A stretch of DNA of 64,000 bases from contig JAJOJU010000004.1 in the NCBI GenBank assembly GCA_021208265.1, positions 34,688-98,687 of the forward strand. The letters are read 5' to 3'. Below the pieces are notes generated by a model. The model saw only the letters and a list, made by a program, of their open reading frames with translations, searched no databases and was not told where the DNA came from. Within the stretch, counting starts at the first letter, position 1, and the number at the start of each line of letters is the position of its first letter. The position numbers and the translations under genes were made by a program. This DNA is from Alphaproteobacteria bacterium. GTDB taxonomy: Bacteria > Pseudomonadota > Alphaproteobacteria > Micavibrionales > Micavibrionaceae. Positions 8,984 to 54,940 of this stretch are shown in pieces.

Positions 8984-9101
8984 GAGCCTTACGATAGATA
9001 CTTCGTTAGAAAAGACAATGTGGCTATCACTTTAACACCCCCTGTAATGCCCGACAATTTCTTTTGCCTATTATTAACAGGAACCATGATATGCTGATGA
9101 T

Positions 9102-10668: not shown

Positions 10669-10767
10669 GACATAGTCTCCTTAAATCTCAGGATGCTCGT
10701 GACACAACCTTACAGGGAAAATGAAGCTTCGTACAGGCGCGTTCTTTTTTGCGGCGCAAAATGAAGT

Positions 10768-13427: not shown

Positions 13428-15211
<1,784 letters not shown>

Positions 15212-15924: not shown

Positions 15925-16298
15925 TTGAGAACCCCGACCACTCAACTTTGATAAATCATATAGAAATACAAGAGCCTTTTGTGAAAGTGGCTTTTGAGAC
16001 CACATATCCAACTTTTGACAAATTTATTAAGGGGGAAATTTATTCACAGCCTCCCGAGTATGTCATAAAGGCGGCGCAATCTGCTGGACTGATTTTTGAT
16101 AAGGCTGAGGCTATGCAGCATTTAAATTTTTTATATTCAAAAGAGTTAGGATTTACCGCTTTTAATGCAAATCTTCAGCTTTGGGGTGTGCCCAATCAAA
16201 GCGATAATGAGAAGAAAAAAGTGATTTTGGATAAAGCTGAATGTAGCTTTGGCCAAGGTTGGTTTGGCAGAACTTTTACAATAAGAATCGATTTTTAA
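15921..16298 (+). CDS. Hypothetical protein, 125 aa, in the AT-rich islet
   Basis: ORF with a TTG start overlapping the stop of the preceding ORF by 4 nt. No recognisable motif. Confidence 0.35.
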   Translation: MIENPDHSTLINHIEIQEPFVKVAFETTYPTFDKFIKGEIYSQPPEYVIKAAQSAGLIFDKAEAMQHLNFLYSKELGFTAFNANLQLWGVPNQSDNEKKKVILDKAECSFGQGWFGRTFTIRIDF

Positions 16299-16346
16299 AA
16301 GGCCCACCATGCACGTAATCGTATTCATCAAAGCCACGGAAATTAA

Positions 16347-16694
16347 ATGACCACCCTTCCCCCCTGCCCGAAATGTTCCTCGCCTTACGTCTATGAAGAC
16401 GGCCCCCTCCTCATCTGCCCGGAATGCGCGCATGAGTGGAACCCGGAAAACGCAGGCGGTGAGGAAACGGCCCCTGTGATTAAAGATGCCGTCGGCAATA
16501 TACTGGCGGATGGCGATAGCGTTACCGTGATGAAAGACCTTAAATATCGCGGCGGGGTGGTGAAATTGGGCACGAAGGTGAAATCCATCCGGCTTGTTCC
16601 CGGTGCCTCGGACGGGCATGATATTGACTGCAAAATCCCGGGCGTTGGCCAGATGGGCCTCAAATCCGAATTCGTTAAAAAGATTACGGATTAG
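16347..16694 (+). CDS. yjdM: PhnA/YjdM zinc-ribbon protein
   Basis: N-terminus [13 protein letters not shown]...CPECAHEW. C-terminal domain [23 protein letters not shown]...[20 protein letters not shown] is typical of PhnA/YjdM. Confidence 0.85.
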
Positions 16695-17511
16695 GGTCCG
16701 GCTCATCCGCCCCCACGACATTAATAATCTCGCCCGTATCCTGCGCGCGCGGGGCGTTGAGATCGGCCTCATCCGCATCCGCCTTTGTTAGCGTTAAATG
16801 CGGGTCGATCAGCGGCACGGCATAGCTGTGGGTTTCGGCGTAATCCTTGAACACCGCGCCGGTATCAATAAAGAAACAATTGCCGCGCTGGCGAATTTGA
16901 TCACCCGCCGTATGCCCCATAAACACGCGGGTAATGCCGGGTACGCCGCTTTGGTCGTTATCCAGCACCCGCCTGCGGCTCCAGATCGCCTGATAAAGCG
17001 TATCCGGGTCGCCGTCATTGACCTTCTGCACGAATTCCTGCCACGACAGGCCCTCCGGCACATCAGCATGGACGATACCCACAACGCCGCTATCGGTTTC
17101 CAGCTCGATCAACACGGGTAAATCCTCGAACACCTGACGGATTTTCATGGCCTGATCATGCTTCAGTTTCCCCAGCCAGTTCAAACTGCGCGAATTGAAA
17201 TACTGGTAAAATTGTGGGAAGCCGAATTTGTAGAAATTATCGTTTGAACCCAGCATATGCATGACGACATCATCATGATTACCGCGCACGGAATACACGT
17301 AAGGACGTTGCAGGAAGTCATAGACCTCGTGCGATTCCGGGCCGCGGTCAACCAGATCCCCCACCACGATCAACCGGTCCTTGGTTTCATCGAACTGCGC
17401 GATTGCCAGCGCGCGGTCGACCAGGAAGAAACATCCGTGAATATCACCCACAACGAAATCGCGGCCTTCGGTATTTTTGGATAAACGCAATACCCGGTTT
17501 TTATGGCTCAT
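16684..17511 (-). CDS. Metallophosphoesterase, PPP-family Ser/Thr phosphatase (PrpA/lambda-phosphatase or ApaH-like)
   Basis: Motifs [16 protein letters not shown] and VRGNHD in canonical order. Its 3' end overlaps the convergent yjdM by 11 nt. Confidence 0.8.
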
Positions 17512-17631
17512 AGCCTGATCCTCCCCTTTTATAAAACCTCACACAGTTACGAATGGTAGGTGATTCCCACAACACTGACTAGGGTGAGATCGGGGATTGA
17601 TTTCGGCAGGGCAGAGTGAGAGGATCAGCCC

Positions 17632-25376: not shown

Positions 25377-25460
25377 GATCTAGATCCTTTTCGCACTGAA
25401 ATATTATGATTCACTTGCCATCATAATAAGGAACCAGATTGCGAAACGACTTGATAAGGG

Positions 25461-25616
25461 TCAATTCTTATTATCGTCATCATCATCCAGCAAGATACGG
25501 CGCGCCGCACCTTCCAGATCGTCATACTGCCCGGATTTTATGCTCCACACAAAAGCACCAAGCCCCAACAAACCCAGAAAAAGCGCAATGGGGATAAGAT
25601 AGATAAGCACACTCAT
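25461..25616 (-). CDS. ccoS: cbb3 oxidase maturation protein CcoS/FixS (51 aa); absent from the ORF track
   Basis: My translation: MSVLIYLIPIALFLGLLGLGAFVWSIKSGQYDDLEGAARRILLDDDDDNKN. Its start overlaps the ccoI stop as ATGA. Confidence 0.8.
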   Translation of the reverse strand: MSVLIYLIPIALFLGLLGLGAFVWSIKSGQYDDLEGAARRILLDDDDDNKN

Positions 25617-27817
25617 GTCTTCAGCCTTAGCCGGAAAGAATTGGCAATCACGAGCAGGGATGACCCCGACATCGCCAGCGCCGCAATCATGGGCGTTACC
25701 AACCCCGCCAGCGCAATGGGAATGGCGATGATATTATAAACAACAGCCAGCGCAAAATTTTGCTTTACCAGTTTCTGCGTAAAACAGGCTGTTTTATAGG
25801 TAAGCGCCACAGGGCTCAGTTGATCGCCCATAAAAATAATATCCGCCGCATTTTGTGCCATATCGATGGCGCTGCCGGGCGCCATGGAAACATCCGCCCC
25901 GGCAAGCACAGGCGCATCGTTTAGCCCGTCCCCTACCATCAGCACCTTATGACCCGCAGTTTTAAGGCCTTCCAGAATTTTGTATTTATCCGGCGGGGTC
26001 TGCTGCGCGTGGTATTGTTTGATGCCGCAGGCTTGCGCGACAGATGAAGCTGCCGACTGACGGTCGCCCGTCACCATGACGGGAGTAAGCCCACCGTTTT
26101 TCAGCTCGTCAACAACCGCCGCCGTGTCGGCACGCAAAGTATCGCTGAAGGTAAAACGCACGGGTTTGTCATCGGCAACGCTCAGCCATAGCTCCATCCA
26201 TTCATCCTGCGGGGCTGTTTCATCGCCGCACCATGTGCGGCTGCCGAGCCTGACCGCCTTGCCTTTATAAACGGCTTCCATCCCCCGGCCCGGATGATCC
26301 CGCACATCTGATAATTCATAGAGCGCTCCGTCATAAGAGCCTGCCAGCGCCTTGGATAACGGATGCGTGCTATGCGCCGCCAGTGATGCCGCCAGCCTCA
26401 GAGAATTCCCATCATAATCGCCTTGAAGCGCGGGATGCCCAGCTGTCAACGTGCCGGTCTTATCCAGCAGGACCGTATCAATCCCGGCCAGCCGCTCCAA
26501 CGCATCGCCTGATTTCACCAGCACGTTATTCTTCATCAGCTTGCCCGTGGCCAGAACCTGCACCACCGGCACCGCCAGCCCCAACGCGCACGGGCAGGTA
26601 ATAATCAATACCGTAATCGCGATCATCAAAGCTTCCTGCCAGACGATGCCGCCAAACACCAGCCAACCGATAAAGGCCAGCGCCGCCAGACTGTGTACCA
26701 CGGGGGTATAAAGCCGCGCCGCCCGGTCGGCAATACGCACATATTGCGCCTGCCCTTGCCCGGCTTGTTCCATCAGGCGGATGATATCAGCCAGCAGTGT
26801 ATCTTCGGCACGCTTCATAACCTTGATCTGAATGGGGGCGGCGATATTCATCGTGCCGGCATAGACATGGCTGCCGTTTTCAATCACTTGCGGTAAGGTC
26901 TCTCCCGTGATCAGGGATGTATCAATCTCACTGCGCCCTTCGGTTACAATTCCGTCAACCGGGCATTTTTCCCCCGCCATGACACGCACAGTCATATCCT
27001 CTTCCAGATCACGCACGGGCAAGCGCTGGATTTTGCTATCCTTTAGCACATGGGCAAAACCGCTCAGCGCGCTCAATAAACCCGTTGCCGTGGACCGGGC
27101 ATGCTTACGCGCCCGGAAATCAAAATACCGCCCGATAAGCAGGAAGAAAATCAGCATCACGGCGGAATCAAAATAAACGTATTCGCTGTGATTGATGGTG
27201 CCAAACAGGCTCATCGCCCCGGTTAATATGATGCCGATGGAAATCGGCACATCCATATTCGTCTGTCCCTTAGCCAGAACCTTGACGGCGGAACGGAAAA
27301 AAGGCCGCCCGGAAAACAGAATGGTCGGCAGGGCAATTATGGCGGACACCCAGTGGAATAATTCCCGCGTTGCCAGCCCCATGATCTCACTGCTCGCGCT
27401 CCACAACCCCACCGAGAGCAGCATGATATTACCCATGGCAAATCCGGCGACACCCAAGCATAGCAACAAAAATCGCTCTTCTTGCTGGGATGTGCTTTCC
27501 TCTTCCGCCGCATCATACGGCACAACACCAAAGCCCAGCGATTCAACCGTGCGGACGTAATCATTGGCTTCTTGCGCTTTGCCATCCCAATGCATCGACA
27601 AACGCCCGGTTGAATAATTTAAACGGGCGTCCCGGATATGATCTTCCCGGCGCAGCGCCCCTTCAATCTTCTGAATACAGGCCGCACAATGCACACCGCG
27701 CACCATGACAGAAAGGCTGTAACTGCCATCCTTTTCACGGCGGGCGAGATGGTCAAAGCCTTCCGTACTTAATGATTCACCAAGGTCAGGCTGGTCTGAT
27801 ACTGTTGCTGGTTCCAT
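25613..27817 (-). CDS. ccoI: Copper-translocating P1B-type ATPase CcoI/FixI
   Basis: HMA domain GVHCAACIQKIE. TM motif CPC. Motifs DKTGTLT and GDGLNDAP. Positioned within the ccoGHIS block. Confidence 0.9.
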   Translation of the reverse strand: MEPATVSDQPDLGESLSTEGFDHLARREKDGSYSLSVMVRGVHCAACIQKIEGALRREDHIRDARLNYSTGRLSMHWDGKAQEANDYVRTVESLGFGVVPYDAAEEESTSQQEERFLLLCLGVAGFAMGNIMLLSVGLWSASSEIMGLATRELFHWVSAIIALPTILFSGRPFFRSAVKVLAKGQTNMDVPISIGIILTGAMSLFGTINHSEYVYFDSAVMLIFFLLIGRYFDFRARKHARSTATGLLSALSGFAHVLKDSKIQRLPVRDLEEDMTVRVMAGEKCPVDGIVTEGRSEIDTSLITGETLPQVIENGSHVYAGTMNIAAPIQIKVMKRAEDTLLADIIRLMEQAGQGQAQYVRIADRAARLYTPVVHSLAALAFIGWLVFGGIVWQEALMIAITVLIITCPCALGLAVPVVQVLATGKLMKNNVLVKSGDALERLAGIDTVLLDKTGTLTAGHPALQGDYDGNSLRLAASLAAHSTHPLSKALAGSYDGALYELSDVRDHPGRGMEAVYKGKAVRLGSRTWCGDETAPQDEWMELWLSVADDKPVRFTFSDTLRADTAAVVDELKNGGLTPVMVTGDRQSAASSVAQACGIKQYHAQQTPPDKYKILEGLKTAGHKVLMVGDGLNDAPVLAGADVSMAPGSAIDMAQNAADIIFMGDQLSPVALTYKTACFTQKLVKQNFALAVVYNIIAIPIALAGLVTPMIAALAMSGSSLLVIANSFRLRLKT

Positions 27818-28278
27818 GTGCTTTTCAACTGTGCTTTCCAGAGACCTCGCATCGGCAGTGGCAGCGGGGCCTCATAAATACCGTCCCCTTTATGCATGAG
27901 TCGGGCCTCAAAATCGAGGCCATCCTGCACGGGCCGAATAATACGCGCGCTAACAAACGCATCCTTGATCGGCACGCCATTTTCATCAGCCAGTTGCCAA
28001 CGCAAAACACCGTCTTTAAATTCCGCCTTTTCTTGCAAGACCGGCTGGTTTTTGGCTGTCTCCAGAACCTGATTAAACTTAAGCCCCTTTTCATAGGCAT
28101 TGTCAGTCACAACACCCGTCTGGGTACTAACAGCCATATAGACGAAAATTCCATCCAGCAAAGCCACAACCGCAAAAAAGATCACAAAATAACGTGGGAT
28201 CCATTTATCCTTCGGGTTTTTGGGAACTTCCAGCGCTTCTTCCATGTCATTTCCGTTTCGTGATGAATTTGGCATCAT
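27769..28278 (-). CDS. ccoH: CcoH/FixH family protein
   Basis: An N-terminal TM segment (WIPRYFVIFFAVVALLDGIFVYMAV) followed by a periplasmic domain. Positioned between ccoG and ccoI. The exact start is uncertain (possibly the internal Met MEEALEV). Confidence 0.75.
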   Translation of the reverse strand: MMPNSSRNGNDMEEALEVPKNPKDKWIPRYFVIFFAVVALLDGIFVYMAVSTQTGVVTDNAYEKGLKFNQVLETAKNQPVLQEKAEFKDGVLRWQLADENGVPIKDAFVSARIIRPVQDGLDFEARLMHKGDGIYEAPLPLPMRGLWKAQLKSTWNQQQYQTSLTLVNH

Positions 28279-29692
28279 AGTCAGTGCGGATGGTTTTTTC
28301 CCGATCTTCCAGAATAAATTTTATATCACGCGGTTCATCCGGCGGCACATGGGCATGTAGATTGATATGATAAGACCCAACGCTATCAGCCGGGACAAAC
28401 AGATTATCGGCACCCACATCGCCTGCGGCGCTGACATCAATAACGGCGCCATCTAACCCCTCTACACTGATCATATATGTCTTGTGATCATGCGTTTTAT
28501 TTAAGATTTTAACCGTGTAACCATTACGAATTTCGCCGCTGGAAAGCTGAACATACAAGGGGTTGCGGTCATGCAGAATATGCAGCTCCGCCGGGGCGCG
28601 GGTGATCAGCGCATAAAGCATCACGCTTCCGACCAGCGCCAGAATGGCGGAATAATAAAACGTGCGGATGCGGAAAAATTTGAACTTCTCCGCCCCGCCT
28701 TTTACAGCTGCCGCCATGTGATTGGTGGTATCATAACGGATCAGCCCACGCGGGCGCTCTACCTGATCCATGATATTATTACAGGCATCCACACATAAAC
28801 CGCAGGCAATGCATTCCATCTGCAGGCCATTACGGATATCAATCCCCATCGGGCATACCTGCACGCAGGCCGTGCAGTCGATACAATCCCCGCGCCCATC
28901 CCAGCTTTCCCCTTTTTTATGTTTGCCGCGCGGCTCCCCGCGATCAAGATCATAACCAATGATCAGCGTATCCTTATCAAACATGGCAGATTGAAAGCGG
29001 GCGTAGGGGCACATATAGGTACAGACCTGTTCCCGTGCAAAGCCCGCCATCAGATAAGTGCTGAAGGTTAGCCCCGCAATAACCGTCAGTACGGTCGGCG
29101 ATACATCGAATTCAAAAAAGCTCCAGACCAATGTCGGCGCATCATTGAAATACAGCACGAAAGACCCCGCCGTACACCAGGCAATGATCAACCATATAAA
29201 ATGTGTCAGCCCAATTTTGCAGATTTTTTCAAACGTCCACGGCCCTTCATACAGTTTCTTCCGGGCATTGCGGTCCCCCTGCACAAAGCGTTCAACCCAG
29301 ACGAAAAGATCGGTCCAGACCGTCTGCGGACAGAAATATCCGCACCACACCCGCCCGAACATGCTGGTCACAAAAAAAAGAGCAATCGCCGCCAGAATAA
29401 GAATGCCGGTGAAGATATAAATTTCCTGCGGCCAGATCTCGATCCAGAACCAGTAAGCGCGCGGCCCGTTAAGATCGATCAACACTGCCTGATCCGGAGC
29501 ATTCGGCCCGCGGTCCCAGCGGATAAAGGGGACAAGATAATAAATCCCCAGCGTGACAATCATAGCCACCCATTTCAGCTTGCGGTATTTTCCCCAAACC
29601 CGTTTCGGAAAAATCTTTTCCTGCTTGGCGAAATACCCCAGCAGAGATTGATTACTCTGCTGGTTGCTGTTCTGGTTCTGCGTGCTGTCCAT
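28247..29692 (-). CDS. ccoG: CcoG/FixG 4Fe-4S ferredoxin-type membrane protein
   Basis: Two ferredoxin motifs, CIDCTACVQVCP and CIACGLCVDAC. An N-terminal TM region. A C-terminal Ig-like domain length. Confidence 0.9.
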   Translation of the reverse strand: MDSTQNQNSNQQSNQSLLGYFAKQEKIFPKRVWGKYRKLKWVAMIVTLGIYYLVPFIRWDRGPNAPDQAVLIDLNGPRAYWFWIEIWPQEIYIFTGILILAAIALFFVTSMFGRVWCGYFCPQTVWTDLFVWVERFVQGDRNARKKLYEGPWTFEKICKIGLTHFIWLIIAWCTAGSFVLYFNDAPTLVWSFFEFDVSPTVLTVIAGLTFSTYLMAGFAREQVCTYMCPYARFQSAMFDKDTLIIGYDLDRGEPRGKHKKGESWDGRGDCIDCTACVQVCPMGIDIRNGLQMECIACGLCVDACNNIMDQVERPRGLIRYDTTNHMAAAVKGGAEKFKFFRIRTFYYSAILALVGSVMLYALITRAPAELHILHDRNPLYVQLSSGEIRNGYTVKILNKTHDHKTYMISVEGLDGAVIDVSAAGDVGADNLFVPADSVGSYHINLHAHVPPDEPRDIKFILEDREKTIRTDYDAKFITKRK

Positions 29693-30671
29693 TATCTTCT
29701 ATCGCTTCCTCTGCCGTAGCCGGGATCAAAACAGGGGCATCATCCTTTTCTCCGCCGCCCAGTTGGTGCAGATAAACCGTCAGCTGCTTGATGGTGTTTT
29801 CATCCAGCCGCTCACCCCAGGCGGGCATCATGCCGCCCCGGGCATTATACACTGTTTTAAATATGGTTTCGCGATCGCCGCCATAAAGCCATATAGCATC
29901 GGTCAGGTTCGGCGCACCGAATTCATGCTTTCCCTTCGCATCAGGCCCGTGACAGGACGCACATTGCTGCTGGAAGATTTCAGCCCCCGCCGCCAGATAT
30001 TCTTGCGGTACATCGCCATGCGTTTCATCACCCTGATGGGGATGGGACAGACTGAGAACAAAATCGACAACATTATTCACTTCATCGCGCGTTAGCAAAC
30101 CTTCCTTACCGAAAGCCGGCATCTGCGAAACCCGTGTGTCTAAACCACCGGCACGAATACCATGGGTTAGCGTCTGGTGAATCTCATCCAGCTTGCCGCC
30201 CCACAGCCAATCATCATCGTTCAGGTTTGGATATCCTTTGCCGCCTTCAGCCCCCGTGCCGTGACAGGTAGCACAATTATCCTTAAACGCCGCCGCGCCG
30301 CCTGCTATCGCAAAGGCGTATAGTTCAGGGTCGTTCAGGATTTCATTCAAGGAAGCATTTTCAAAACGCTCCAGATACACGTCCTGACGCGCGCGAATTT
30401 CCGCCTGACTTTCTTCCAGTTCCTTATATTGAGTGTAACCGCCCATACCTTCCGTGGCACCGCCCGGAACAGGCCATGACGGGTAGACAACGAAATACCA
30501 GATGGACCAGATAATACATATGATGAACACCCATACCCACCAGCGCGGCAGGGGGTTGTTCAATTCCTTCAACCCGTCCCATGAATGACCTGTGGTTTCA
30601 ACACCGCTGACCTCATCAATATCCTTGTGCGCACCGGCAGAATTCTTATTAGATTTTTTATCACTCATCAT
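29652..30671 (-). CDS. ccoP: cbb3-type cytochrome c oxidase subunit III, diheme CcoP/FixP
   Basis: An N-terminal TM helix and two heme c sites, CATCHG and CASCHG. Confidence 0.9.
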   Translation of the reverse strand: MMSDKKSNKNSAGAHKDIDEVSGVETTGHSWDGLKELNNPLPRWWVWVFIICIIWSIWYFVVYPSWPVPGGATEGMGGYTQYKELEESQAEIRARQDVYLERFENASLNEILNDPELYAFAIAGGAAAFKDNCATCHGTGAEGGKGYPNLNDDDWLWGGKLDEIHQTLTHGIRAGGLDTRVSQMPAFGKEGLLTRDEVNNVVDFVLSLSHPHQGDETHGDVPQEYLAAGAEIFQQQCASCHGPDAKGKHEFGAPNLTDAIWLYGGDRETIFKTVYNARGGMMPAWGERLDENTIKQLTVYLHQLGGGEKDDAPVLIPATAEEAIEDNGQHAEPEQQPAE

Positions 30672-30819
30672 TTCTCTCCTTCAGGGGAATCTGCGCATCC
30701 TGTTCGTATTTTTTCTTTGATCCGGGGCGAAACACCCAAATCACAACCCCGATAAAAAAGATAAAAAAGAATATCAGGCCCGTAAGACCAAATACGGGGC
30801 TGGCAAATAGCTCCTTCAT
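30661..30819 (-). CDS. ccoQ: cbb3 oxidase subunit CcoQ/FixQ (52 aa); absent from the ORF track
   Basis: My translation: [56 protein letters not shown] overlap with the ccoO stop. Its 3' end overlaps the ccoP start. Confidence 0.7.
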
Positions 30820-31556
30820 AACACCCCCTCATCAACATCTTTCGCGGCTTCAAAATCGACCATGGTCCCTAAAACCTGAAGATAGGCAATGAGCGCATCC
30901 ATCTCCGAGACGATACCGGGCTGACCGTCAAAATCACGAGCAATCACTTTATCGCCGTAACGTTCTATCAAACCGCCGGTATCAGTACGTGCCTCACCCG
31001 TGGCCTGCACAGCGGCATCCTTGGCAGCCATTTTGATCATGTCATCCGTATAAGGCACACCCACGGCGCGCAGCGCTTTCAGGTGTTCAGGAAGATCATG
31101 CAACTTCGCCCCCTTATGCATCAGAAAGGAATAGGAAGGCATGATAGATTCCGGCACCAGATCACGCGGCTCAATCATATGCGCCACATGCCATTCATCG
31201 GAATATTTACCACCCACGCGCGCCAGATCAGGTCCGGTTCGTTTTGATCCCCACTGGAAGGGGTGGTCGTACATGCTTTCGGCGGCAAGGCTGTAATGCC
31301 CGTAACGCACCACTTCATCACGCAGCGGACGGATTTGCTGGGAGTGACAGTTATAGCACCCTTCGCGGATATAGATGTTATAGCCCGCCAGTTCCAGCGG
31401 TGTATAAGGACGCACGCCTTGCACAGGCTCAATCACCGTTTCCTGCCGGAATAGGGGTATGATCTCAATAATTCCGCCGATCAACACAACAACAATAATG
31501 AACCCCAAAAGCAGAAGGGAATTCTTTTCCAGTTTATCGTGGTTCATCCAGCTCAT
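30816..31556 (-). CDS. ccoO: cbb3-type cytochrome c oxidase subunit II, monoheme CcoO/FixO
   Basis: A TM anchor and the heme site CYNCHSQ. 4-nt overlap with ccoN. Confidence 0.9.
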
Positions 31557-32999
31557 GCTGTGGCTCCTTGTAATTGTGTACGTTGTTCTTTGGCGCTGAC
31601 GTCACCGCGTATGGTCCGCCAGAAATTGTAAACCATGATGAGGGCGCCCGTGAGGTAGAGTATCCCGCCCATGGCGCGGATCGCGTAGAACGGCTTCATC
31701 GCCATCACGGTTTCCACGAAGGAATATGACAGGAAGCCCATATCATCATATGTGCGCCACATCAGACCCTGCATCACACCGGCAATCCACATGGCGGCGA
31801 TGTAAAACACGATCCCGATCGTGGCGATCCAAAGATGCAGGCTCACCAGCTTTGTGGAATAAAGACGATCCCGCCCCCAAAGACGCGGCACCATGTAATA
31901 AAGTGCGCCGAAGGAAATAAACCCGACCCAGCCCAGCGCCCCGGAATGGACGTGACCGATGGTCCAGTCAGTATAATGCGACAGTGAGTTGACAGCGCGG
32001 ATCGACATCAGCGGTCCTTCAAATGTGCTCATCCCGTAAAAGGCCAGCGCGATAATCATGAACTGGATGATCGGATCCTCGCGCAGCTTGTGCCACGCAC
32101 CGGAAAGCGTCATGACGCCGTTGATCATCCCGCCCCAGCTCGGCATCCAGAGCATGATGGAGAACGTCATCCCCAAAGTCTGCGCCCAGTCGGGCAGCGC
32201 CGTATAATGCAAATGGTGCGGCCCCGCCCAGATATAAATGAAGATCAGCGACCAGAAATGGACGATCGAAAGGCGGTAGGAATAAACCGGACGCTCCGCC
32301 TGTTTCGGGATAAAATAATACATCATGCCCAGGAAACCGGCGGTCAGGAAGAAGCCCACGGCGTTATGCCCGTACCACCACTGGATCATGGCGCTTTGCA
32401 CACCTGCCCACGCCGAATAGCTTTTGGTCCCCATAAATTCAACGGGGATCGAGACATTATTCCCCAGATGCAAAACAGCCACAGTAATGATAAAGGCCAG
32501 ATAGAACCAGTTGGCGACATATAAATGCGGCTCCTTACGCTTGATGCAGGTCATCAGATAAACCAGTAGATAAGACACCCAGACGATCGTCAGCCAGATA
32601 TCCGCATACCATTCCGGCTCGGCATATTCCTTGGATTGCGTGACCCCGGTAACGTACCCCAAGGCCGCCATCACGATAAAAGCCTGATACCCCCAGAAGG
32701 TAAACATCGCCAGCTTGTCGCCCCAGAGCCGCACGCCGCAGGTCCTCTGCACCACATAATAGCTAGTGGCAAAAAAGTGCGTTCCCGCCAAAGGCAAAAA
32801 TCACCGCCGATGTGTGAAGCGGCCGCAGGCGGCCAAAGTTTAAGTAAGGTTCGATATTCAAATCCGGGAACACCATCTGCAGGGCGATGAAAATCCCGGC
32901 AGCGAATCCGACAATTGCCCAGAAAATGGTCGCCAGCGTGAAAAGCCGTACCACCTCGTAATTATAATCGGAAACCAGTTTTACATCAGAAGAGGCCAT
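31553..32999 (-). pseudogene. ccoN: cbb3-type cytochrome c oxidase subunit I CcoN/FixN, one frame break
   Basis: ORFs 32763-32999 and 31553-32797 join as ...[27 protein letters not shown] when the A6 run 32771-32776 is read as A5. Multi-TM heme-copper oxidase with conserved His ([29 protein letters not shown]). Confidence 0.92.
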
Positions 33000-33012
33000 T
33001 ATTTTTTCCTTC

Positions 33013-33723
33013 TTAAAAAATCATCAAACCTGCGGTCAGAAATAACCAGAAACTACTAAGAACCAGCGCCCCACGCTTCAGATAACCCCCGGCGTGAGGA
33101 AATTTGTGACGCAACGCACCACCTGCCCATGCCACAGCCACTAATGCGGGGATAGTCCCCAGTGTGAATGCCGCCATAGCCGCCCCCGCATAAATAGGTG
33201 ATGGCGCGCTAGCCGAAGCCATAAGCGCCGCCAATACAAGACCACAAGGCATAAACCCCAGCAAGACCCCCATACCATAGCGTTTCATGCTGTTTGGGTT
33301 ATTGCCGAGGCGCCCCAAGGCTTTAGATATAAACCTGTATGGCAGGCTAAGCCGTATGCCAGCCGTCCAGGGAAAGATCATACCAAACCTTGGAAAAGCC
33401 GTCACCAGGAACATAACCCCCGCTAACATAAGCAACGGCACACTGATCAAGATTTTTAAATCTGAAAACAAAAACGCCAGATTAATAAGGCTGCTCACCA
33501 GAATTGCCAACGCCACATAGGTCGTCATACGCCCCAAATGATAAGGCAGGAGAAGTGAAGAGGAGAGCCGGTTTAACTGCGGATTATCGCTGGTTTGTGC
33601 CAAGACGAAGGGGGCGCACATCCCCGCACAATGCGTAAAGCCGCCCACCAGCCCCGCCAGAAACAGGCTGAGCGGCAAACCATAAGACGTGCTGACGTCA
33701 TGTAGACATTGTGCAATTAACAT
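33013..33723 (-). CDS. DsbD_2 / TauE-SafE-like membrane protein with an HCxxMC motif, linked to the cbb3 cluster
   Basis: 236 aa, several hydrophobic (TM) segments, [13 protein letters not shown] in the first TM. Its stop is 13 nt upstream of the ccoN start on the same strand. Confidence 0.6.
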
Positions 33724-33780
33724 AGAGGCCCATGTGTTTATTATTCTCTCCCATTTTGCGCAATGCAGCAGCTTTGTGCA

Positions 33781-33794
33781 TTGACCGATGTCAA
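33781..33794. promoter_or_regulatory. FNR/FixK-type box TTGAC-CGAT-GTCAA
   Basis: A perfect TTGA-N6-TCAA dyad. Its centre is about 64 nt upstream of the start at 33723 (DsbD_2-like gene plus ccoNOQP) and about 66 nt upstream of the divergent ORF at 33854. Confidence 0.55.
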
Positions 33795-33853
33795 TTTATC
33801 CATGGCACAAAACCATTTGATCATTACGTAAACCATGTGCTAATGCTTGGCAC

Positions 33854-34998
33854 ATGATCATAAATACGGAAATAAAAACCTTAATTGCCACCATCGAAAA
33901 AGGCGGCCCGGATAACGACTCTCATGTAAAACAGCTAATTCAGGCGTTGAGCCAGTCGTTCGCGGATAATCAGGACCGCTACAAAAACTACCCCGCCAGC
34001 GCAGCCATTCCCGAAGCTTACCCGGTGGACGAAGATGGATATGCCGTAACCTTTGACCCCGTGGAAGATGAAGCCGGATTCTGGGATGCCTGGTCACGAT
34101 ACGGCATTGTTGTCGGCAAGAACATAGCGCCCCCGGAACTATGCGCGCAGACCGTAGCCCGCATTCATGAAATTTTTAACGACCTTAGCGGTAACAAATG
34201 CAATATTCTGGACCCCGCCACCTATGACGCCATGCCGGTGGATAAAGAAGGTACACCTATATTATCCCGCGGGTTTCTGGAGATATACCACGATGATGCT
34301 TTGGCGCAATTACGCCAGAACATCCGCAGCTATATTCACCATGCTTTAATCTGGGGCAGTCCCAAAATATGGACATCCTTGACCGGCTGGGTGTAAAATT
34401 ACCAAGCCATGAAGGCGGCAAGGCATTGCCACTGCATGTTGATCAGAACCCCACGATTGACCCGGATTTCAAAACATTGCAAGGCGTGCTGGCTTTGGTT
34501 GATTGCCCGGCAGAACGCGGTACATTCCGCGGTGTTCCCGGATCAAGGAATGTGTTCCAGCAATATGCCCAAATGCCGGGCGGCATTGGTGAATTTGTAG
34601 AGCTGGACCCTCAGCACCCCATCGCAGAAGAGCTGACCAATAAAGCACAAGCCTTCCCCTTACGCGCCGGTGATATGGTCTCATGGGATAGCCGCACAAC
34701 TCACGCCAATACGGAGAATATCTCTCAAGACCCGCGCATGGTATTCTATGTCGCCGCCGGATTGGCACAGGAAAATAATGCAGCCGCCGTTGCCGCCCGC
34801 AAGGATGCCTTCACAACAGGGCTGGCAACAAGCAAACTGAAGGTTCCGCAAGCCTTGCTGCGCGCTACGATCAAACCACGCTTTATTGATGCTGAGGCGG
34901 TATCGCGTATCCGCAAGCCTGAAAACCTGACCCTGCTGGGAAAACTGCTTTATGGCACCGAACGATATGACGACATCATCCCCCCGTCTGCTTCTTAA
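33854..34998 (+). pseudogene. Phytanoyl-CoA dioxygenase (PhyH)-family Fe(II)/2-oxoglutarate oxygenase, one frame break
   Basis: ORFs 33854-34396 and 34369-34998 join near 34375-34390. LPLHVDQ (HxD) and WDSRTTHANT (distal His) fit the 2-His-1-carboxylate facial triad. Confidence 0.65.
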
Positions 34999-36103
34999 TG
35001 CGGAACCTTTTGGGTTTGGCCCGGCAGCTGCCATTGCCGGCTTCTTTCCGCATCTGCGCCCGCACTTTGATGCGATCGGCTATGTCGGCAAACGCCACAC
35101 TCTCGATCTGCAACGCAGCCTTACTTACGATGCCATCCATGACGTGTCTGAAATGGGTAAGGAAGAACGCGCGGAAGTGCTGGCGCCTATTTTTGCGCAG
35201 TATGATGTTTTCCTTTCTGCGATGGATCACAAGATGGTCGAATTGGCAAAGAAGGCCGGATTAAAAGTTTTCTATTACGACGCACTGACATGGTACTGGC
35301 CCGAAATTCCAGCAAGCGTGCGAACGGCAGATCTTTATATGGGTCAGAATTTTTTCGGCGTAGAAGAACGCCTGCATGAAATTTTCAGAGAAAAATCTCA
35401 TGCTCACGCAGTCTCCCCGATTGTATCGAAAGTAAAACCAACACAAAATAAACAACATATTCTTATTAATCTCGGTGGTCTGCAAAACCCTTTCTGGCCG
35501 GTTGAGGAAATCACCGCCTTTGCCTCAAAAATCATTGATGCCATTAAAAGCGCGCCGCCTCAGGAAGAAAAAATTATTATCGCCAGTTCCTGCGCCATAT
35601 CTGAATGCTTAAAAGACCGCGGCGTAAAAACTTACTCCCGCGCTGAAATGGAAACACTTTTGGCAGAATCAAAACTGGCCTTCATGACGCCGGGGCTCGG
35701 CAATATATATGATGCTGCGGCTTATAATATACCCACGATATGGCTGCCGCCTGCCAATGACAGCCAGGGGCAACAGCTTAAATTGCTGCAGCAAAATGTC
35801 ATGTGCGATCAGGCATTGGATTGGCACGATTTCATGAATGGTGATTCGGTGAATTATAAAGCCGTACAAACAGATGTCCTTAAAACCATCGCCGCATTAG
35901 CTAAAACACTTGTCACAGATGATGATATTCAAAATCGTCTGGGCAAGGTAATCACACAAAAATACGAAACGTTAAAAGATAGGCATGACAGCCAAACACA
36001 GGCCTTAATAAAACGCTTTGGCACAGGCGGAGAAAAACAGGTGGCTGATTTGGTTACACAGTATTCCCGTATCACACCACTGGAAGATGGACCCGCAGGA
36101 TGA
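34967..36103 (+). CDS. Hypothetical protein, GT-B (GT1/GT28-like) glycosyltransferase-like
   Basis: Start set at MTTSSPRLLLNAEPFGFGPAAAIA. The pattern is two Rossmann-like halves (ILINLGGLQNPFW...; FMTPGLGNIYDAAAYNIPTIWLPPANDSQGQQ). The assignment is by pattern only. Confidence 0.4.
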   Translation: MTTSSPRLLLNAEPFGFGPAAAIAGFFPHLRPHFDAIGYVGKRHTLDLQRSLTYDAIHDVSEMGKEERAEVLAPIFAQYDVFLSAMDHKMVELAKKAGLKVFYYDALTWYWPEIPASVRTADLYMGQNFFGVEERLHEIFREKSHAHAVSPIVSKVKPTQNKQHILINLGGLQNPFWPVEEITAFASKIIDAIKSAPPQEEKIIIASSCAISECLKDRGVKTYSRAEMETLLAESKLAFMTPGLGNIYDAAAYNIPTIWLPPANDSQGQQLKLLQQNVMCDQALDWHDFMNGDSVNYKAVQTDVLKTIAALAKTLVTDDDIQNRLGKVITQKYETLKDRHDSQTQALIKRFGTGGEKQVADLVTQYSRITPLEDGPAG

Positions 36104-36972
36104 ACGAATATCATTTCCGCACAGCTGGTAATTTATGCGTCTGTTTTCGAACAGCCCATGACCTGTCTCATGATAAAAATGCCTTGCTGCAATTCGGAGC
36201 TTATATTCCAGGGTTTGAAATGATGGATCAAACATCTGTTCCGCCTGATATAGTTCTGGAGCATATTAAAGGGCCGAAAAATAAATTAGAAAGCAGCGGC
36301 AATAAACTTGCTCTCTTATCAAGTGACACTAATGGTATTCCGGCGGATGTTTATCATCTGCTTTATGCTGCCGTGCGAAAGGTGCTGCTATCGCAAAGAA
36401 ATATTTGCATCGTTCACAGCGCTTGCGTGGGAATAAAAGATCAGTTCCGTCTTGTCGTTGGGCATTCGGGGTCCGGAAAAACAACGCTGGCACAGCGGCT
36501 GATTGACCGTCATGGCATGACACTATTTTCCGGTAATAAAACTGCCCTGCGTTTTGAGTCTGATGGCACGATAACAGCCGTGGCAGGAACACGCACCATG
36601 ACGGCGCTGGATGATAATATGAACCGTTATACCTATGAACTAAAGCCAGAAGACTACGCAGAAAATTGTGAAGTAAAAATCACGAGCATTGATATCATCC
36701 GAGTCAATGACGGGGTGGAGGAATGCCAATCCTTATCCCCTTTAAGCGCCCTGCATACGCTCTACCCCTATTTTATGGATCAGGTAAATGCCGATGTGAT
36801 TGTATGCGGCAGCCATATTTTTGATGGCAATGTAGCGGTTGCTGCTAAACAAAAAATTGTAGATGGCCTCGGTGCTTCCTTACGCCAAACACCCGTTCGA
36901 AAAATATCCGGTACCATGGATTATATGGAGTCCTCGATTGGTAACTCACAAAAGCTCTTACCGGAAACATGA
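36100..36972 (+). CDS. HPr-kinase-C-like (HprK-related) P-loop protein
   Basis: IVHSACVGIKDQFRLVVGHSGSGKTTLAQRLIDRHGMTLFSGN matches the HprK C-terminal-domain style Walker A context. ATGA overlaps with both neighbouring genes. Confidence 0.5.
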   Translation: MNEYHFRTAGNLCVCFRTAHDLSHDKNALLQFGAYIPGFEMMDQTSVPPDIVLEHIKGPKNKLESSGNKLALLSSDTNGIPADVYHLLYAAVRKVLLSQRNICIVHSACVGIKDQFRLVVGHSGSGKTTLAQRLIDRHGMTLFSGNKTALRFESDGTITAVAGTRTMTALDDNMNRYTYELKPEDYAENCEVKITSIDIIRVNDGVEECQSLSPLSALHTLYPYFMDQVNADVIVCGSHIFDGNVAVAAKQKIVDGLGASLRQTPVRKISGTMDYMESSIGNSQKLLPET

Positions 36973-38092
36973 AACAAAAAACAAAAATATTATGGGGTGT
37001 TTGCGGAATTGGTCACGGTCACACATTCCGGCAAAAACCCTTGATCGAACATTTTTCAAAAGAAGCGGAAATAGTGATACTGGCTTATGGGGAGAGCTAT
37101 GACGTTTTCAACAAAATATTTCGATAAGCATAAAAATGTCAGCATTGAACGTGTCGCCGTACCCTTTTATGTCGGCAACCAATATGGGCTTGATTTTGAA
37201 GCCACAGCGATACACCCGGCAAATCAAAATATAAATTTCCGAAAGATAAATGCCGCAGCGTTAGATGCCGCCATCCAACGTCTGGGAAAACCTGATCTGG
37301 TGATCAGTGACTATGAACCCATAAGCGCGCAATATGCTTATCTTCATGATGCGCCCTTGGTCACCATAGATCAGCAAAGCAAATACCTGACCGGGCATTT
37401 TCCTCAGCCTTTGAATGGTCAATGGTTCAACGATGAAATTGAGCGTCTGCGTATGTTTTTTCCGAAGGCTGAAAAACGTCTGGCAAGCACGTTTTTTTAA
37501 AGTGGTGCAAAAAACCGATACATCAGAAAATGTCGATTTATGCCCTCCGGTTTTGAGTGATGAAATTATCTCACTGCAACGAAAATCAGCGCAGGGAAAT
37601 AAATCTATCGTTGTTTATATCTCTTCCCAGCAACCTTTTGGACAGAGCGTGGACGCGATTATAGAGGCCTGCCGGACGCAGCCGGATTATCAGTTCCACA
37701 TATTCGGCAAAGGGCTGAACATAGAAACACCGCCTGAGAACATTTTGAATATTCATTTTTATGATCAGGGTGATCCGGCTTTCCATGAACAACTCTCCGT
37801 TTGTGACGGCATCGTTTCCACAGCCGGTCATACGCTGCTGTCTGAAGCCATGTATCTGGGCATCCCTGTATACGCCATTCCCCTGCCCGTCTATGAACAA
37901 CAAATGAACGCACATATTATTCATGAAAACGGATTTGGAGTATCTCATCTTCACTTTGATAAAGATATTCTGGCATCGTTTATTAAAAACGTCCCGCGAT
38001 ACGCTGCCAATATTAAGGCGGATAAAAACGTTCTTTTGCGCACAGATGGCAGAGATCATATTATCGAACAGCTTAATGCCCAGCTTTCATGA
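36969..38092 (+). pseudogene. Glycosyltransferase, MJ1255/TIGR00661-like (GT28 C-terminal type), two frame breaks
   Basis: N-terminus MKQKTKILWGVCGIGHGHTFRQKPLIEHF from ATG 36969. It joins ORF 37087-37500 near 37105-37116, and ORF 37415-38092 at the T7 run 37492-37498. The C-terminus is STAGHTLLSEAMYLGIPVYAIPLPVYEQQMNA. Confidence 0.6.
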
Positions 38093-38146
38093 TATACCCC
38101 TAAGAAGGATTGATAGAAGGGGCATAATGATGCTACATTCATAGTC

Positions 38147-38473
38147 ATGAAGGCTGTATTCCTTTTCATATGTGTTGTTGCTATTTTCACCGCTGGAGTT
38201 ACATCCGGCGCGGGGGCAGTTCAAGCATCCTGTGCGCATCACATCACCGCTGCAGCGGATGACGGGGTAGATACCACAGCGGTTCCTGCACATAATCACA
38301 GCAAGACAAATGGCATTTGTAAAGATTGTTGCTGCCATCATAATCACGTAATGGCAAAACATTGGCTGGAAGTTAGCTATGCCCTGGCTACCGGCAAAAC
38401 CTTTTTGTTTGAGCTGCCTCAAGCCAAACATTCTCAATATTCTCCCTCCCTTTATAAGCCTCCCATAGCTTGA
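38147..38473 (+). CDS. Small secreted His/Cys-rich protein, CzcI-like
   Basis: Signal peptide, then CAHH, HNH and ICKDCCCHHNH. It sits directly upstream of the RND adaptor and pump genes. The family assignment is from memory of small CzcI-type proteins. Confidence 0.4.
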   Translation: MKAVFLFICVVAIFTAGVTSGAGAVQASCAHHITAAADDGVDTTAVPAHNHSKTNGICKDCCCHHNHVMAKHWLEVSYALATGKTFLFELPQAKHSQYSPSLYKPPIA

Positions 38474-38478
38474 TTTTA

Positions 38479-38502
38479 CAGGCGTAGTGCGCCTGCATTT
38501 TG
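38479..38502 (+). terminator. Possible intrinsic terminator or attenuator between the czcI-like gene and cusB
   Basis: A 6-bp GC-rich stem, CAGGCG (38479-38484) / CGCCTG (38490-38495), with a 5-nt loop, followed by CATTTTG. Confidence 0.3.
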
Positions 38503-38558
38503 ACGCATGCCAGATGTGTGGCATGTGATTATTTACATGTAAAATCAAAGGAATAGCT

Positions 38559-42625
<4,067 letters not shown>

Positions 42626-53397: not shown

Positions 53398-54620
53398 CTA
53401 GAATTCTGTGCTTTCGAGCCATGCCATCATTCGGTGCGCTGCATAAACAGCTGTGGACATTGTAGCCTGTAAAAGATAGCCACCCGTTGGGGCTTCCCAA
53501 TCTAACATCTCACCTGCGATAAAAACGCCTGGTTTACCGGCCAGCATGTAGTTCTGATCGAGAGACTCAAACCTGATCCCGCCGGCAGTTGAGATGGCAC
53601 GCTCTAATGAAAACGCTTCATACAGCCTGACCGGACAGGATTTGATAAGCCGTGCCAGCTCCGCGGGTTTATAGTCTCCCAATATTTTACGGTCAGGATG
53701 TTCCATCAAAAGCCCGGTTGCTAAAGGGGAAAAGTTAAGAGCCTTTCTCAGAAAATTCGAAAATGTATCGCGTCCGCGCGGTTTTTTAAGGCGGCTTTCT
53801 ATGGCATCCAATGTAAGATCCGGTTTTAAATCAAGTTCCAGAAAAACAGAATCGGAACTTCGCAATGCCTGTCTTAGCACGGAAGACAGAGCATAAATCG
53901 CGCTGCCCTCAATACCTTTTTCCGTGATCATGATTTCGCTTTTGATTTTGGTGCCCTTGAAAGCCGCGATAACGGGCTTTAAGGGGTGACCGGAAAATTT
54001 TTGACGAAAGATGTCAGACCATTCTACGGCAAAACCACAATTCGCTGGTTCCAATGGTGATATATCTATGCCTTCCGCCTTCAAAATCTGAGCCCATGAT
54101 CCATCGGAACCCAGACGCGGCCATGAAGCCCCCCCTAAAGCCAGCAGGGTTGCATCCGCCTTGAATGTGGTGTTTCCTGACGCTGTCTTAAAAATCAGGC
54201 TATCGCCCTGCCAGCCTTGCCAGTCATGCCCCATCATCAAACTAACACCTTGCTGCCGAAGCGCGCCAGCCACGCACGCAACAACGGCGAGGCCTTAAAG
54301 CTTTCCGGAAATACCCTGCCACTGCTTCCGATAAAAGTCTTTTCTCCCAGGCCATCACACCAATTGCGTAAACTCTGCGGCGAAAACTCCTGAAGCGGTT
54401 TTTTCAGGACATCAGCCCGGTCTCTATATTTTTCCAGAAAACTATCCCAAGGCTCCGAATGTGTCAGGTTAAGGCCGCCGCGACCCGCCATCAGAAATTT
54501 TCGTGCAGGCGAGGGCTTGCGTTCAAACACAGTAACTGAAAAACCACTCTGGGCAGAGATAATCTCCGCAGCCATCAAACCCGCAGGCCCGCCGCCGATG
54601 ATCGCAATATTTTTACTCAT
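53398..54620 (-). pseudogene. BaiN/RdsA (HI0933-like, TIGR03862-type) NAD(P)/FAD-dependent flavoprotein, one frame break
   Basis: MSKNIAIIGGGPAGLMAAE Rossmann motif. ORFs 54237-54620 and 53398-54273 join near 54260 (AWLARLRQQGVSLMMG). Confidence 0.75.
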
Positions 54621-54940
54621 GCCAATTTCTTTAATTCAAAATAGAAGAAGATATTACACTGCATGAGTACATACAGGCAATTCCATCAGATAATTGAATT
54701 GTATGAACTAATAAAAAACAGGCATCACTTAAAACACTGAATTCAAATACAAGAAAGGCAAGCCAGCACAGCTGGTTAGCTGCCGGGCATCGTCATACTC
54801 ATCGAAGACAGTTAAGTATGTCTTAGGACTTTTATTTTATAAAAGTTTGAATAATCCGATAATTTGTTCTCTCTTTCAAATTTCTTAAATAGCAGGTAAT
54901 TTGTGTCATAAGTCTAGGGAGGCTTTTTCAAGCACATCAT

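Follow-up and report, generated by a model that had tools for sequence, protein, structure and literature searches.

A self-contained four-gene module encoding a PhyH-family oxygenase, a PEPCK/HprK-fold protein and two predicted GT-B glycosyltransferases

Closest described systems and layout of the cassette

Cytosylglucuronate (CGA) synthases of the BlsD/MilC type, from blasticidin S and mildiomycin biosynthesis, join glucuronate to free cytosine. A sister family of these enzymes is predicted to be encoded in a four-gene cassette that we analysed within a 64,000-nt window of an alphaproteobacterial genome (Micavibrionaceae; contig JAJOJU010000004.1). The remaining three proteins are closest to KanJ, SnoK and SnoN together with the uncharacterised YbiU/DUF1479 proteins, to ATP-PEPCK and HprK, and to the MJ1255/VC2487 family, for which we know of no established function and for which a literature search on the family names returned no functional study. 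The whole cassette occupies 33854-38092 on the plus strand as four tightly overlapping genes, listed here with two flanking features:

33781-33794, no strand assigned: FixK/FNR-type palindrome TTGACCGATGTCAA in the divergent intergenic region
33854-34998, plus strand: PhyH-family Fe(II)/2-oxoglutarate oxygenase, 381 aa after repair
34952-36103 (alternative start 34967), plus strand: GT-B-like protein, predicted CGA synthase sister family
36100-36972, plus strand: 290-aa Walker-A protein of PEPCK/HprK fold, putative phosphotransferase
36969-38092, plus strand: Glyco_trans_1_3 (GT1/GT28-like) glycosyltransferase, 373 aa after repair
38147-38473: 108-aa Cys/His-rich ORF

The ATGA overlaps at both ends of the P-loop gene (36100-36103 and 36969-36972) are present as originally described, as are all of the motifs listed at that time (LPLHVDQ, TTHANT, HSACV...GHSGSGKTTLA, GIGHGHTFR, STAGHTLLSEAMYLGIPV and EQQMNA). 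The 32-nt overlap proposed between the first two genes (34967-34998) holds if the GT-B-like protein starts at ATG 34967, while the other candidate start, ATG 34952, extends the overlap with PhyH to 47 nt. Orthologous loci also keep tight junctions, ranging from few-base gaps to overlaps of 4-47 nt.

The three frame breaks reported within the cassette are real and were repaired by three single-base changes. The PhyH gene is one A short in an A-run (34364-34367), and the last glycosyltransferase gene carries one extra A in an A-run (37113-37116) and one extra T in a T7 run (37492-37498), all three breaks being ±1 within homopolymers. Because the same type of break splits ccoN (T6, 32771-32776) and cusA (G6, 42008-42013) nearby, we read these as assembly errors and not as decay, and the cassette is probably intact in this genome. 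A decaying pseudogene cluster with genuine frameshifts would fit the occurrence of three breaks within 4.2 kb and the annotation of a 209-aa PhyH fragment, but it is very unlikely given the identical defects in ccoN and cusA and the fact that, single-base shifts aside, the repaired PhyH and glycosyltransferase proteins retain their catalytic motifs and align end to end, as single segments, with intact orthologues from four loci. The frameshift stands in the public record since GenBank lists the C-terminal part of PhyH as a separate protein (P0204; sources ncbi, lgn and nr). The window has about a dozen more pairs of neighbouring, overlapping ORFs on one strand with a similar appearance, ccoN and cusA being the two that were verified.

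Relatives of the four proteins

The repaired oxygenase matches PF05721 at 50 bits (cutoff 22) over profile positions 2-213 of 213, which bears out its earlier placement in the Fe(II)/2OG hydroxylase superfamily. Across an alignment of 33 orthologues (A2) D197, H284 and R295 do not vary and H195 is kept in at least 90 % of sequences. These residues comprise the HxD...H triad, represented at the iron site of the window protein by LPLHVDQ and TTHANT, and an Arg which, from the PhyH family, we take to be 2OG-binding. The AF2 model of a 76 %-identical orthologue (P0195; pLDDT 90) has YbiU/DUF1479, KanJ and SnoN as its best folds, with Foldseek probabilities of 1.00 to YbiU, KanJ, SnoN, PrhA and SyrB2 (double-stranded beta-helix fold) and YbiU as the top match (TM-score 0.59 normalised to query). 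By sequence, SnoK matches at 7e-9. The Gig2-like/DUF1479 profile (PF07350; cutoff 27) gives 25.1 bits with the repaired protein but 27.5 bits with its C-terminal fragment. As with KanJ, the oxygenase is encoded alongside two predicted GT-B transferases. In contrast to these relatives, with which it shares 16-19 % identity in fold alignments, it has extra N- and C-terminal segments (381 versus ~280 aa), and the cassette is without the aminocyclitol or polyketide genes of the KanJ/SnoK/SnoN systems. The likeness leaves hydroxylation, deamination, epimerisation and cyclisation all as candidate reactions for the cassette enzyme.

The GT-B-like protein, for which there is no Pfam model and no match in a PDB sequence search, had been assigned to its superfamily with less certainty. 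That assignment is probably right and can be sharpened, in that the CGA synthase model (TIGR04467) is the only model matched, by 34 of 34 family members (best E=4e-24). The window protein matches it at E=4e-13 over residues 84-369 (model positions 73-379 of 382), although its 49.3 bits lie far under the family cutoff of 300, which makes it a homologue and not a member. We therefore regard it, on sequence, as a CGA synthase sister family with a predicted GT-B glycosyltransferase fold. Its donor-site-like C-terminal motif (TPGLGNIYDAA...LPPANDSQGQQ) aligns with AGH...SEA...EQQMNA of its GT1/GT28-like partner, and in a profile-profile comparison the two align weakly, though colinearly (probability 28 %, E=6e-4). 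Unlike the CGA pathways, the cassette carries no CMP hydrolase, radical-SAM decarboxylase or aminomutase genes.

The third protein had been described as HprK-like. Its superfamily is upheld, but its likeness to ATP-PEPCK extends over both domains and exceeds that to HprK. The AF2 model (pLDDT 95) matches ATP-PEPCK at E=1.6e-10 (Foldseek; TM-score 0.53-0.61 normalised to query) and the HprK/P C-terminal domain at E=4e-6, and the motif GxSGxGKT is common to the P-loop protein, PEPCK and HprK. In a 33-sequence alignment H106 and GHSGSGKT are invariant, the His lying 21 residues before the Walker-A Lys, which is also the spacing of the metal-binding His of PEPCK. The Asp-Asp located ~15-17 residues past this Lys in PEPCK and HprK is missing, and S144-G145-N146-K147-T148 is found instead, with S144, K147 and T148 invariant and G145 and N146 at least 90 % conserved. 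All curated PEPCK, HprK and HprK-related models score the protein far under cutoff, including PF07475 Hpr_kinase_C (12.7 bits, or 25.1 for the best family member, versus 33.3) and the HprK-related kinases A and B (TIGR04352 and TIGR04355; 14.2 and 17.6 bits versus 200). It is also much shorter than PEPCK (290 versus ~530 aa), and the cassette is without the PTS and lasso-peptide partners of HprK systems. Because the Asp-Asp is missing, kinase activity itself is something that we infer, and we designate the protein a putative phosphotransferase. At 50 % identity the family comprises ~200 clusters in a set of 1.84 billion representative proteins.

The last glycosyltransferase matches PF13528 Glyco_trans_1_3 at 145.9 bits (cutoff 25) over positions 2-322 of 322. 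It shows full-length likeness to the MJ1255/VC2487 family and has the N-terminal G-x-G-H and C-terminal E-Q-x-x-N-A of GT1/GT28 enzymes. The MJ1255-type label holds as a relationship but not as membership, since TIGR00661 scores 113.4 bits against a subfamily cutoff of 195.9 (E=1.9e-36 for the best of seven tested sequences).

A self-contained and horizontally mobile module

All four families occur in the same order at 32 of the 39 related loci having enough flank, so that the four genes clearly co-occur in related genomes, as the earlier proposal required, and form one functional unit. Carriers, many of them uncultivated, include Alphaproteobacteria, Melainabacteria (Obscuribacterales), Saccharibacteria and other Patescibacteria, and one Nanoarchaeia-labelled MAG, and the surrounding contexts are ordinary chromosomal ones. 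An adjacent PhyH gene is missing at three loci (L007, L011 and L027). Domain fusions in other organisms, in several different orders, reinforce this association. These include two-domain proteins (GT-B-like with P-loop, and P-loop with last glycosyltransferase), three-domain proteins in both orders and a 1412-aa chain (P0430) that contains all four domains in operon order. The surveyed neighbourhoods contained no additional conserved gene, and no membrane segments were predicted in the cassette proteins. The four genes form a self-contained, horizontally mobile module with soluble products. The L007 cassette is located between rplA and rplJ.

Beyond the four families, only nucleotide hydrolases recur, of the NUDIX and ITPase (PF01931) types and either adjacent or fused, in ~10 of the roughly 60 loci and proteins examined. 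NUDIX genes adjoin the cassette at three loci (L005, L014 and L053), and NUDIX domains form fusions with the P-loop protein (P0059 and P0322) and with PhyH (P0232). The PF01931 NTPase shares one chain with PhyH at L035, lies next to the cassette at L020 and L027 and is inserted into the operon on the P0028 contig. This recurrence leads us to favour a nucleotide-related metabolite over a lipid or peptide, although the hydrolases might instead remove side products or NDP-sugars.

Candidate product and flanking elements

Our literature and database searches found no described pathway, paper, defence-system model or phage family for the cassette, in agreement with the earlier failure to match it to a known pathway. 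We give an even chance to a reading in which the four proteins act together in a self-contained cytosolic pathway making a glycosylated small molecule derived from a nucleobase or nucleotide, which would be its most likely product. The four would work on one substrate, probably as a complex. Two NDP-sugar-dependent GT-B enzymes would add sugars, one of them being closer than any other known protein to the enzyme linking glucuronate and free cytosine, while the PEPCK/HprK-fold protein would carry out NTP-dependent phosphoryl transfer onto the substrate or an intermediate. The closest relatives of the PhyH-family oxygenase with solved structures modify sugar units within glycosides, and the oxygenase itself may oxidise the sugar or the aglycone. 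NUDIX or ITPase-type hydrolases would have been repeatedly recruited as a fifth component. The order first proposed, with hydroxylation preceding phosphorylation and glycosylation coming last, would be one candidate sequence of steps.

MurG and the MGDG/DGDG synthases glycosylate lipids, and the weak matches of the last glycosyltransferase to MurG and diglucosyl-diacylglycerol synthase, together with phytanoyl-CoA as the prototype substrate of PhyH, raise the question of glycolipid or lipid tailoring. Here the chain hydroxylated by PhyH would be acyl or isoprenoid, the GT28-like enzyme would glycosylate the lipid, and the pathway could serve to remodel scavenged lipids in small-genome organisms. 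We consider this quite improbable, as no neighbourhood contains an acyltransferase or lipid-carrier gene, membrane segments are absent, ~50 %-identical orthologues occur across lineages of very different lipids, the GT-B-like protein is related to a nucleobase glycosyltransferase and the recurrent partners are nucleotide hydrolases.

Modification of a protein or peptide, with residue hydroxylation, HprK-like Ser/Thr phosphorylation and addition of a disaccharide to a universal protein or an unlinked peptide, has precedents in the hydroxyproline glycosylation of Skp1, the hydroxylysine glycosylation of collagen and phosphorylated lasso peptides. A hydroxylase with two glycosyltransferases is what hydroxy-amino-acid glycosylation would call for, the fold matches include HprK/P, the P-loop domain of one fusion matches Pfam Hpr_kinase_C at 1.4e-5, and the L007 cassette has rplA and rplJ as its neighbours. 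Against this, ATP-PEPCK is the better fold match, small molecules are the substrates of the closest solved relatives of the oxygenase, and the NUDIX and NTPase partners are left unexplained. The lasso/RiPP partners that had been reported missing (PqqD protein and cyclase) were indeed not found beside the cassette in the surveyed neighbourhoods, nor were an ATP-grasp protein, protease, exporter or conserved small ORF, and we judge such a role to have only a small chance of being correct.

Hypermodification of DNA or RNA bases, in which a base is hydroxylated, phosphorylated and then glycosylated or substituted as in the phage 5-hmC/5-hmU pathways, would follow the same enzymatic logic and could draw on both the relative of a nucleobase-accepting glycosyltransferase and the associated nucleotide hydrolases. 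It is nevertheless highly improbable, since the cassette has neither a TET/JBP-type oxygenase nor a methyltransferase, DNA-binding or nuclease domain, is found in ordinary chromosomal contexts, matches no viral contig and gave generic P-loop matches only in PHROGs and PADLOC.

Within the favoured reading of a nucleobase- or nucleotide-derived product, a more specific and rather unlikely version is that of a CGA-like 'sugar nucleoside' (a hexosyl- or glucuronosyl-nucleobase) that is further oxidised, phosphorylated and glycosylated. The cassette would then belong to a small number of specialised-metabolite pathways that ultra-small Patescibacteria, Melainabacteria and uncultivated Alphaproteobacteria keep and exchange, with a new class of PEPCK-fold phosphotransferase for small molecules and a product that may act on hosts or competitors. 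The four genes are kept together and in order across very distant lineages including minimal-genome organisms, in which retained pathways are usually important, and the families of three of the four proteins are without a characterised member. The identity of the product would give function to several hundred 'hypothetical proteins' and could bring to light new nucleoside-type chemistry as well as a novel role for the PEPCK/HprK fold. The natural fusions, P0430 with its four domains and those with three, are ready starting points for reconstituting the whole pathway in vitro with a single protein.

Two features on the flanks are not supported as parts of the cassette. Oxygen control had been suggested from the FixK/FNR-type box, but TTGA-N6-TCAA is found upstream of PhyH at only 1 of 38 orthologous loci. 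The window has four matches to this pattern, versus 1.55 expected by chance. The box at 33781-33794 is common to the cassette and the divergent minus-strand DsbD_2-ccoNOQP operon, which it most likely serves, ccoNOQP being a classical FixK target. The 108-aa Cys/His-rich protein, noted earlier as following the operon, is not found beside the cassette elsewhere. It scores 20.4 bits (E=6e-4) against the CopL family (NF033807; cutoff 40), and its position before cusB/cusA-like genes suggests, by analogy only, a CopL-like protein heading the downstream cus-type efflux operon.

Gene layout and frame breaks of the cassette

Direct reading of 33650-38600 in combination with the ORF listing identified four overlapping genes whose junctions match those described in the original prediction of a four-gene operon, and all of the sequence motifs quoted there were found in the window.

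Genes of the cassette
33854-34998, + strand, PhyH gene
34952 or 34967 (alternative starts) to 36103, + strand, GT-B-like gene
36100-36972, + strand, P-loop gene
36969-38092, + strand, last glycosyltransferase gene

The PhyH and GT-B-like genes overlap by 32 nt, a figure that rises to 47 nt with the upstream ATG as start; ATGA overlaps link the GT-B-like gene to the P-loop gene (36100-36103) and the latter to the last glycosyltransferase gene (36969-36972). We rejected the idea that a break in the C-run near 34980 divides what is really a single PhyH/GT-B-like gene, as the orthologues are two separate overlapping genes. The three frame breaks noted previously are present, each inside a homopolymer.

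Frame breaks within the cassette
34364-34367, A4 in the PhyH gene, one base short
37113-37116, A4 in the last glycosyltransferase gene (break 1), one base extra
37492-37498, T7 in the last glycosyltransferase gene (break 2), one base extra

Three single-base repairs yield a PhyH protein of 381 aa and a last glycosyltransferase of 373 aa, each aligning with intact orthologues as one end-to-end segment. The frameshift also stands in the public MAG record (LRZ85_00715, LRZ85_00720), where a fragment of 209 aa represents PhyH. Nearby, ccoN and cusA each have a single point of breakage, with halves that abut on the Pfam profiles COX1 (positions 2-60 and 57-436) and ACR_tran (positions 1-821 and 823-1020) respectively, and removal of one base from T6 at 32771-32776 in ccoN or from G6 at 42008-42013 in cusA restores a canonical protein. 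Since these neighbours are also broken in homopolymers, the frame breaks of the cassette are probably indel errors of the assembly and not selective decay of the operon; a pseudogene cluster is less consistent with the data. On a stop-to-stop ORF map about a dozen more adjacent, overlapping same-strand ORF pairs in the 64 kb look similarly split (for example 7187-9399, 9413-10680, 13633-15211, 16146-17538 and 53398-54635). Such apparently split gene pairs across the window suggest an unpolished long-read assembly, and gene calls anywhere within it need checking for ±1 errors.

Identity and fusion of the four proteins

The PhyH protein scores 50 bits against Pfam PF05721 (cutoff 22), and an HxD...H triad and an Arg are kept across 33 orthologues. 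The best fold matches to an AF2 model of P0195, an intact orthologue 76% identical to the window protein (pLDDT 90), were YbiU/DUF1479 over the full length followed by KanJ, SnoN, PrhA and SyrB2, and the top PDB sequence-profile match to PhyH was SnoK (7e-9). The substrates of KanJ, SnoK and SnoN are sugar units of glycosides. No Pfam model matches the GT-B-like protein, its sole curated match being TIGR04467, the hydroxymethylcytosylglucuronate/cytosylglucuronate (CGA) synthase model, at E=4e-13, nearly full length and far below cutoff. All 34 of the 34 family members tested match this model and essentially no other. Profile-profile comparison of the GT-B-like protein with the last glycosyltransferase gave a colinear alignment in which the donor-site-like motifs line up, but a weak one (probability 28%).

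The AF2 model of the P-loop protein (pLDDT 95) retrieved ATP-PEPCK first in Foldseek (E=1.6e-10, query-normalised TM-score about 0.6, both domains covered) and the C-terminal domain of HprK/P next (E=4e-6). Against curated PEPCK, HprK and HprK-related models every score fell far below cutoff. H106 and GHSGSGKT are invariant in the family, which has a conserved SGNKT where PEPCK and HprK have Asp-Asp after the P-loop. Some homologues (P0010, P0026, P0027, P0029, P0030 and others) have a precomputed match to Pfam PF27840. The last glycosyltransferase scores 145.9 bits against PF13528 and 113 bits against TIGR00661 (MJ1255/VC2487), below the cutoff of 195.9, with weaker matches to MurG and macrolide glycosyltransferases. 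No membrane segments were predicted in any of the four proteins, and a lipid as the target of the cassette is less consistent with the data.

Source records name the cassette proteins 'hypothetical protein' or give generic labels, including 'phytanoyl-CoA dioxygenase family protein' and 'ectoine hydroxylase-related dioxygenase' and 'energy-coupling factor transporter ATP-binding protein EcfA2' for two P-loop homologues. Full-text searches by family names, accession numbers and gene combinations returned no description of the cassette.

Fused forms of the cassette proteins, by domain content, with three- and four-domain forms in domain order (L, related loci; P, homologous proteins)
GT-B-like, P-loop: P0111, P0337
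P-loop, last glycosyltransferase: L034, L039, L040, P0366 and others
GT-B-like, P-loop, glycosyltransferase: L035, P0346, P0379
P-loop, glycosyltransferase, GT-B-like: L037, L041, P0421, P0424
PhyH, GT-B-like, P-loop, glycosyltransferase (operon order): P0430, 1412 aa

That the domains have been fused independently and in different orders argues strongly that the four activities serve one pathway and probably associate physically, and they lend support to the coupled stoichiometry proposed at the outset from the gene overlaps. In one clade an unassigned domain of about 280 aa precedes the GT-B-like domain (L037, residues 760-1056 of a 1443-aa fusion; L039, 5695-6535; L040, 7110-7995), opening with a signal-peptide-like hydrophobic stretch in L039 and L040. 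By eye the domain looked CYTH-like, an impression that no Pfam or PDB sequence match backs.

Spread, neighbours and probable role of the cassette

On contigs with P-loop and GT-B-like homologues the four genes recur, tightly joined and in unchanged order.

Examples of loci with the cassette
L001, GCA_964351525.1, alphaproteobacterial-type genome
L003, JGI contig
P0028 contig, third and fourth genes separated by a PF01931 NTPase gene
L004, Obscuribacterales chromosome, the one locus among the matches listed in the P-loop profile search of genome contigs
L005, Saccharibacteria genome, cassette followed by a NUDIX gene
L006, groundwater contig, protein labelled Nanoarchaeia

A metagenome scan added 53 further loci. 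In an HMM census over 60 loci, with near-duplicate contigs counted separately, all four families were present in 32 of the 39 loci having enough flank; L007 and L027 are without PhyH only, L011 apparently also lacks PhyH, five loci are distant stand-alone GT-B-like paralogues, and the truncated contigs are all compatible with that gene order. The P-loop proteins form a small family: among 1.84 billion representatives, 204 clusters (50% identity) reach an E of 1e-30 or better. The cassette is a horizontally transferred, self-contained module, and its four enzymes are soluble. In the window G+C drops from about 51% in the surroundings to 44% at 36001-38000, over the genes for the P-loop protein and the last glycosyltransferase, which is compatible with horizontal acquisition. 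The cassette of L007 (6856-9962), a glycosyltransferase and a GT-B-like::P-loop fusion with no adjacent PhyH, sits inside a ribosomal protein gene cluster between rplA and rplJ.

Clustering of flanking ORFs revealed no gene conserved beside the cassette across divergent loci, and the sole recurrent extra neighbours are nucleotide pyrophosphohydrolases. NUDIX genes adjoin the cassette in L005, L014 and L053, and NUDIX domains form fusions with the P-loop protein (P0059, P0322) or with PhyH (P0232). PF01931, an ITPase/XTPase-type domain, occurs as a fusion with PhyH (L035), next to the cassette (L020, L027) and within the operon (P0028 contig). We found no conserved small ORF within 800 nt of the cassette and no partner gene, so that a RiPP/lasso context was rejected and the earlier statement that such partners are absent holds; a protein or peptide target is likewise less consistent with the data. 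Anti-phage defence or a phage origin was also rejected, PADLOC and PHROGs giving generic P-loop matches only and the viral contig scan being empty, and nucleic-acid hypermodification is a less consistent reading.

The four proteins would act together, probably as a complex. The pair of NDP-sugar transferases, with the phosphotransferase and the oxygenase, may build or tailor a glycosylated small molecule, for which a nucleobase or nucleotide derivative is the most likely substrate. Such a substrate is suggested by the exclusive relationship of the GT-B-like protein to CGA synthase, by the NTP and NDP-X hydrolases that recur with the cassette and by the oxygenase relatives that tailor glycosides. 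The parts belong to known superfamilies, and the cassette would be an orphan small-molecule glycosylation pathway.

A plasmid search did not recover the cassette: all its matches were GT-B-like paralogues that stand alone, beside DUF5937, on linear plasmids of Streptomyces.

GT-B-like paralogues on Streptomyces linear plasmids
11983-13110 of L061 (NZ_CP109020.1)
11989-13131 of L062 (NZ_CP109039.1)

These paralogues, from cultured hosts, have 38-39% identity and always adjoin a DUF5937 protein and an alpha/beta hydrolase; on one plasmid the paralogue lies 1.8 kb from two NUDIX genes. They may offer a tractable entry to the biochemistry of the GT-B-like family.

Regulation and flanking genes

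Oxygen control had been proposed from a FixK-type box upstream of the operon. The box is real (33781-33794) and lies in a divergent intergenic region common to DsbD_2-ccoNOQP-fixG, the ccoNOQP-type operon being a classical FixK target. Where chance predicts 1.55 matches, the window has 4, and 5 of 100 shuffles also reach 4. Oxygen control is not a property of the cassette, as a TTGA-N6-TCAA box is found upstream of PhyH in only 1 of 38 orthologous loci; in the source genome it may nevertheless operate. The TTGA-N6-TCAA pattern occurs a second time at 25451-25464.

Flanking regions of the window
25613-33723, - strand, complete cbb3 oxidase region: DsbD_2-family membrane protein, ccoN (split), ccoO, ccoP and FixG-type ferredoxin, with a further ORF (25613-27871) at its end
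38147-42625, + strand, CopL-like Cys/His-rich secreted protein, cusB-like ORF (identified visually by its His-rich ends) and cusA-like RND pump (two halves, each with ACR_tran, separated by a frameshift at 42008-42013)
56678-58747, + strand, ORF with a TPS secretion domain, then several large same-strand overlapping ORFs, perhaps to 64000

The 108-aa Cys/His-rich protein reported to follow the operon is present and CopL-like, with a score below the family cutoff, but it was not found beside the cassette in other loci and is not a companion of it. Its gene, with a separate promoter-like site at 38110-38139, lies upstream of the cusB- and cusA-like genes, and 38147-42625 is a predicted copper/silver-type efflux operon. 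The ORF following the TPS-domain ORF (58680-60677) has no Pfam match; together with the ORFs that follow, the TPS-domain ORF looks like a two-partner-secretion (filamentous haemagglutinin-like) exoprotein, apparently broken by frameshifts.
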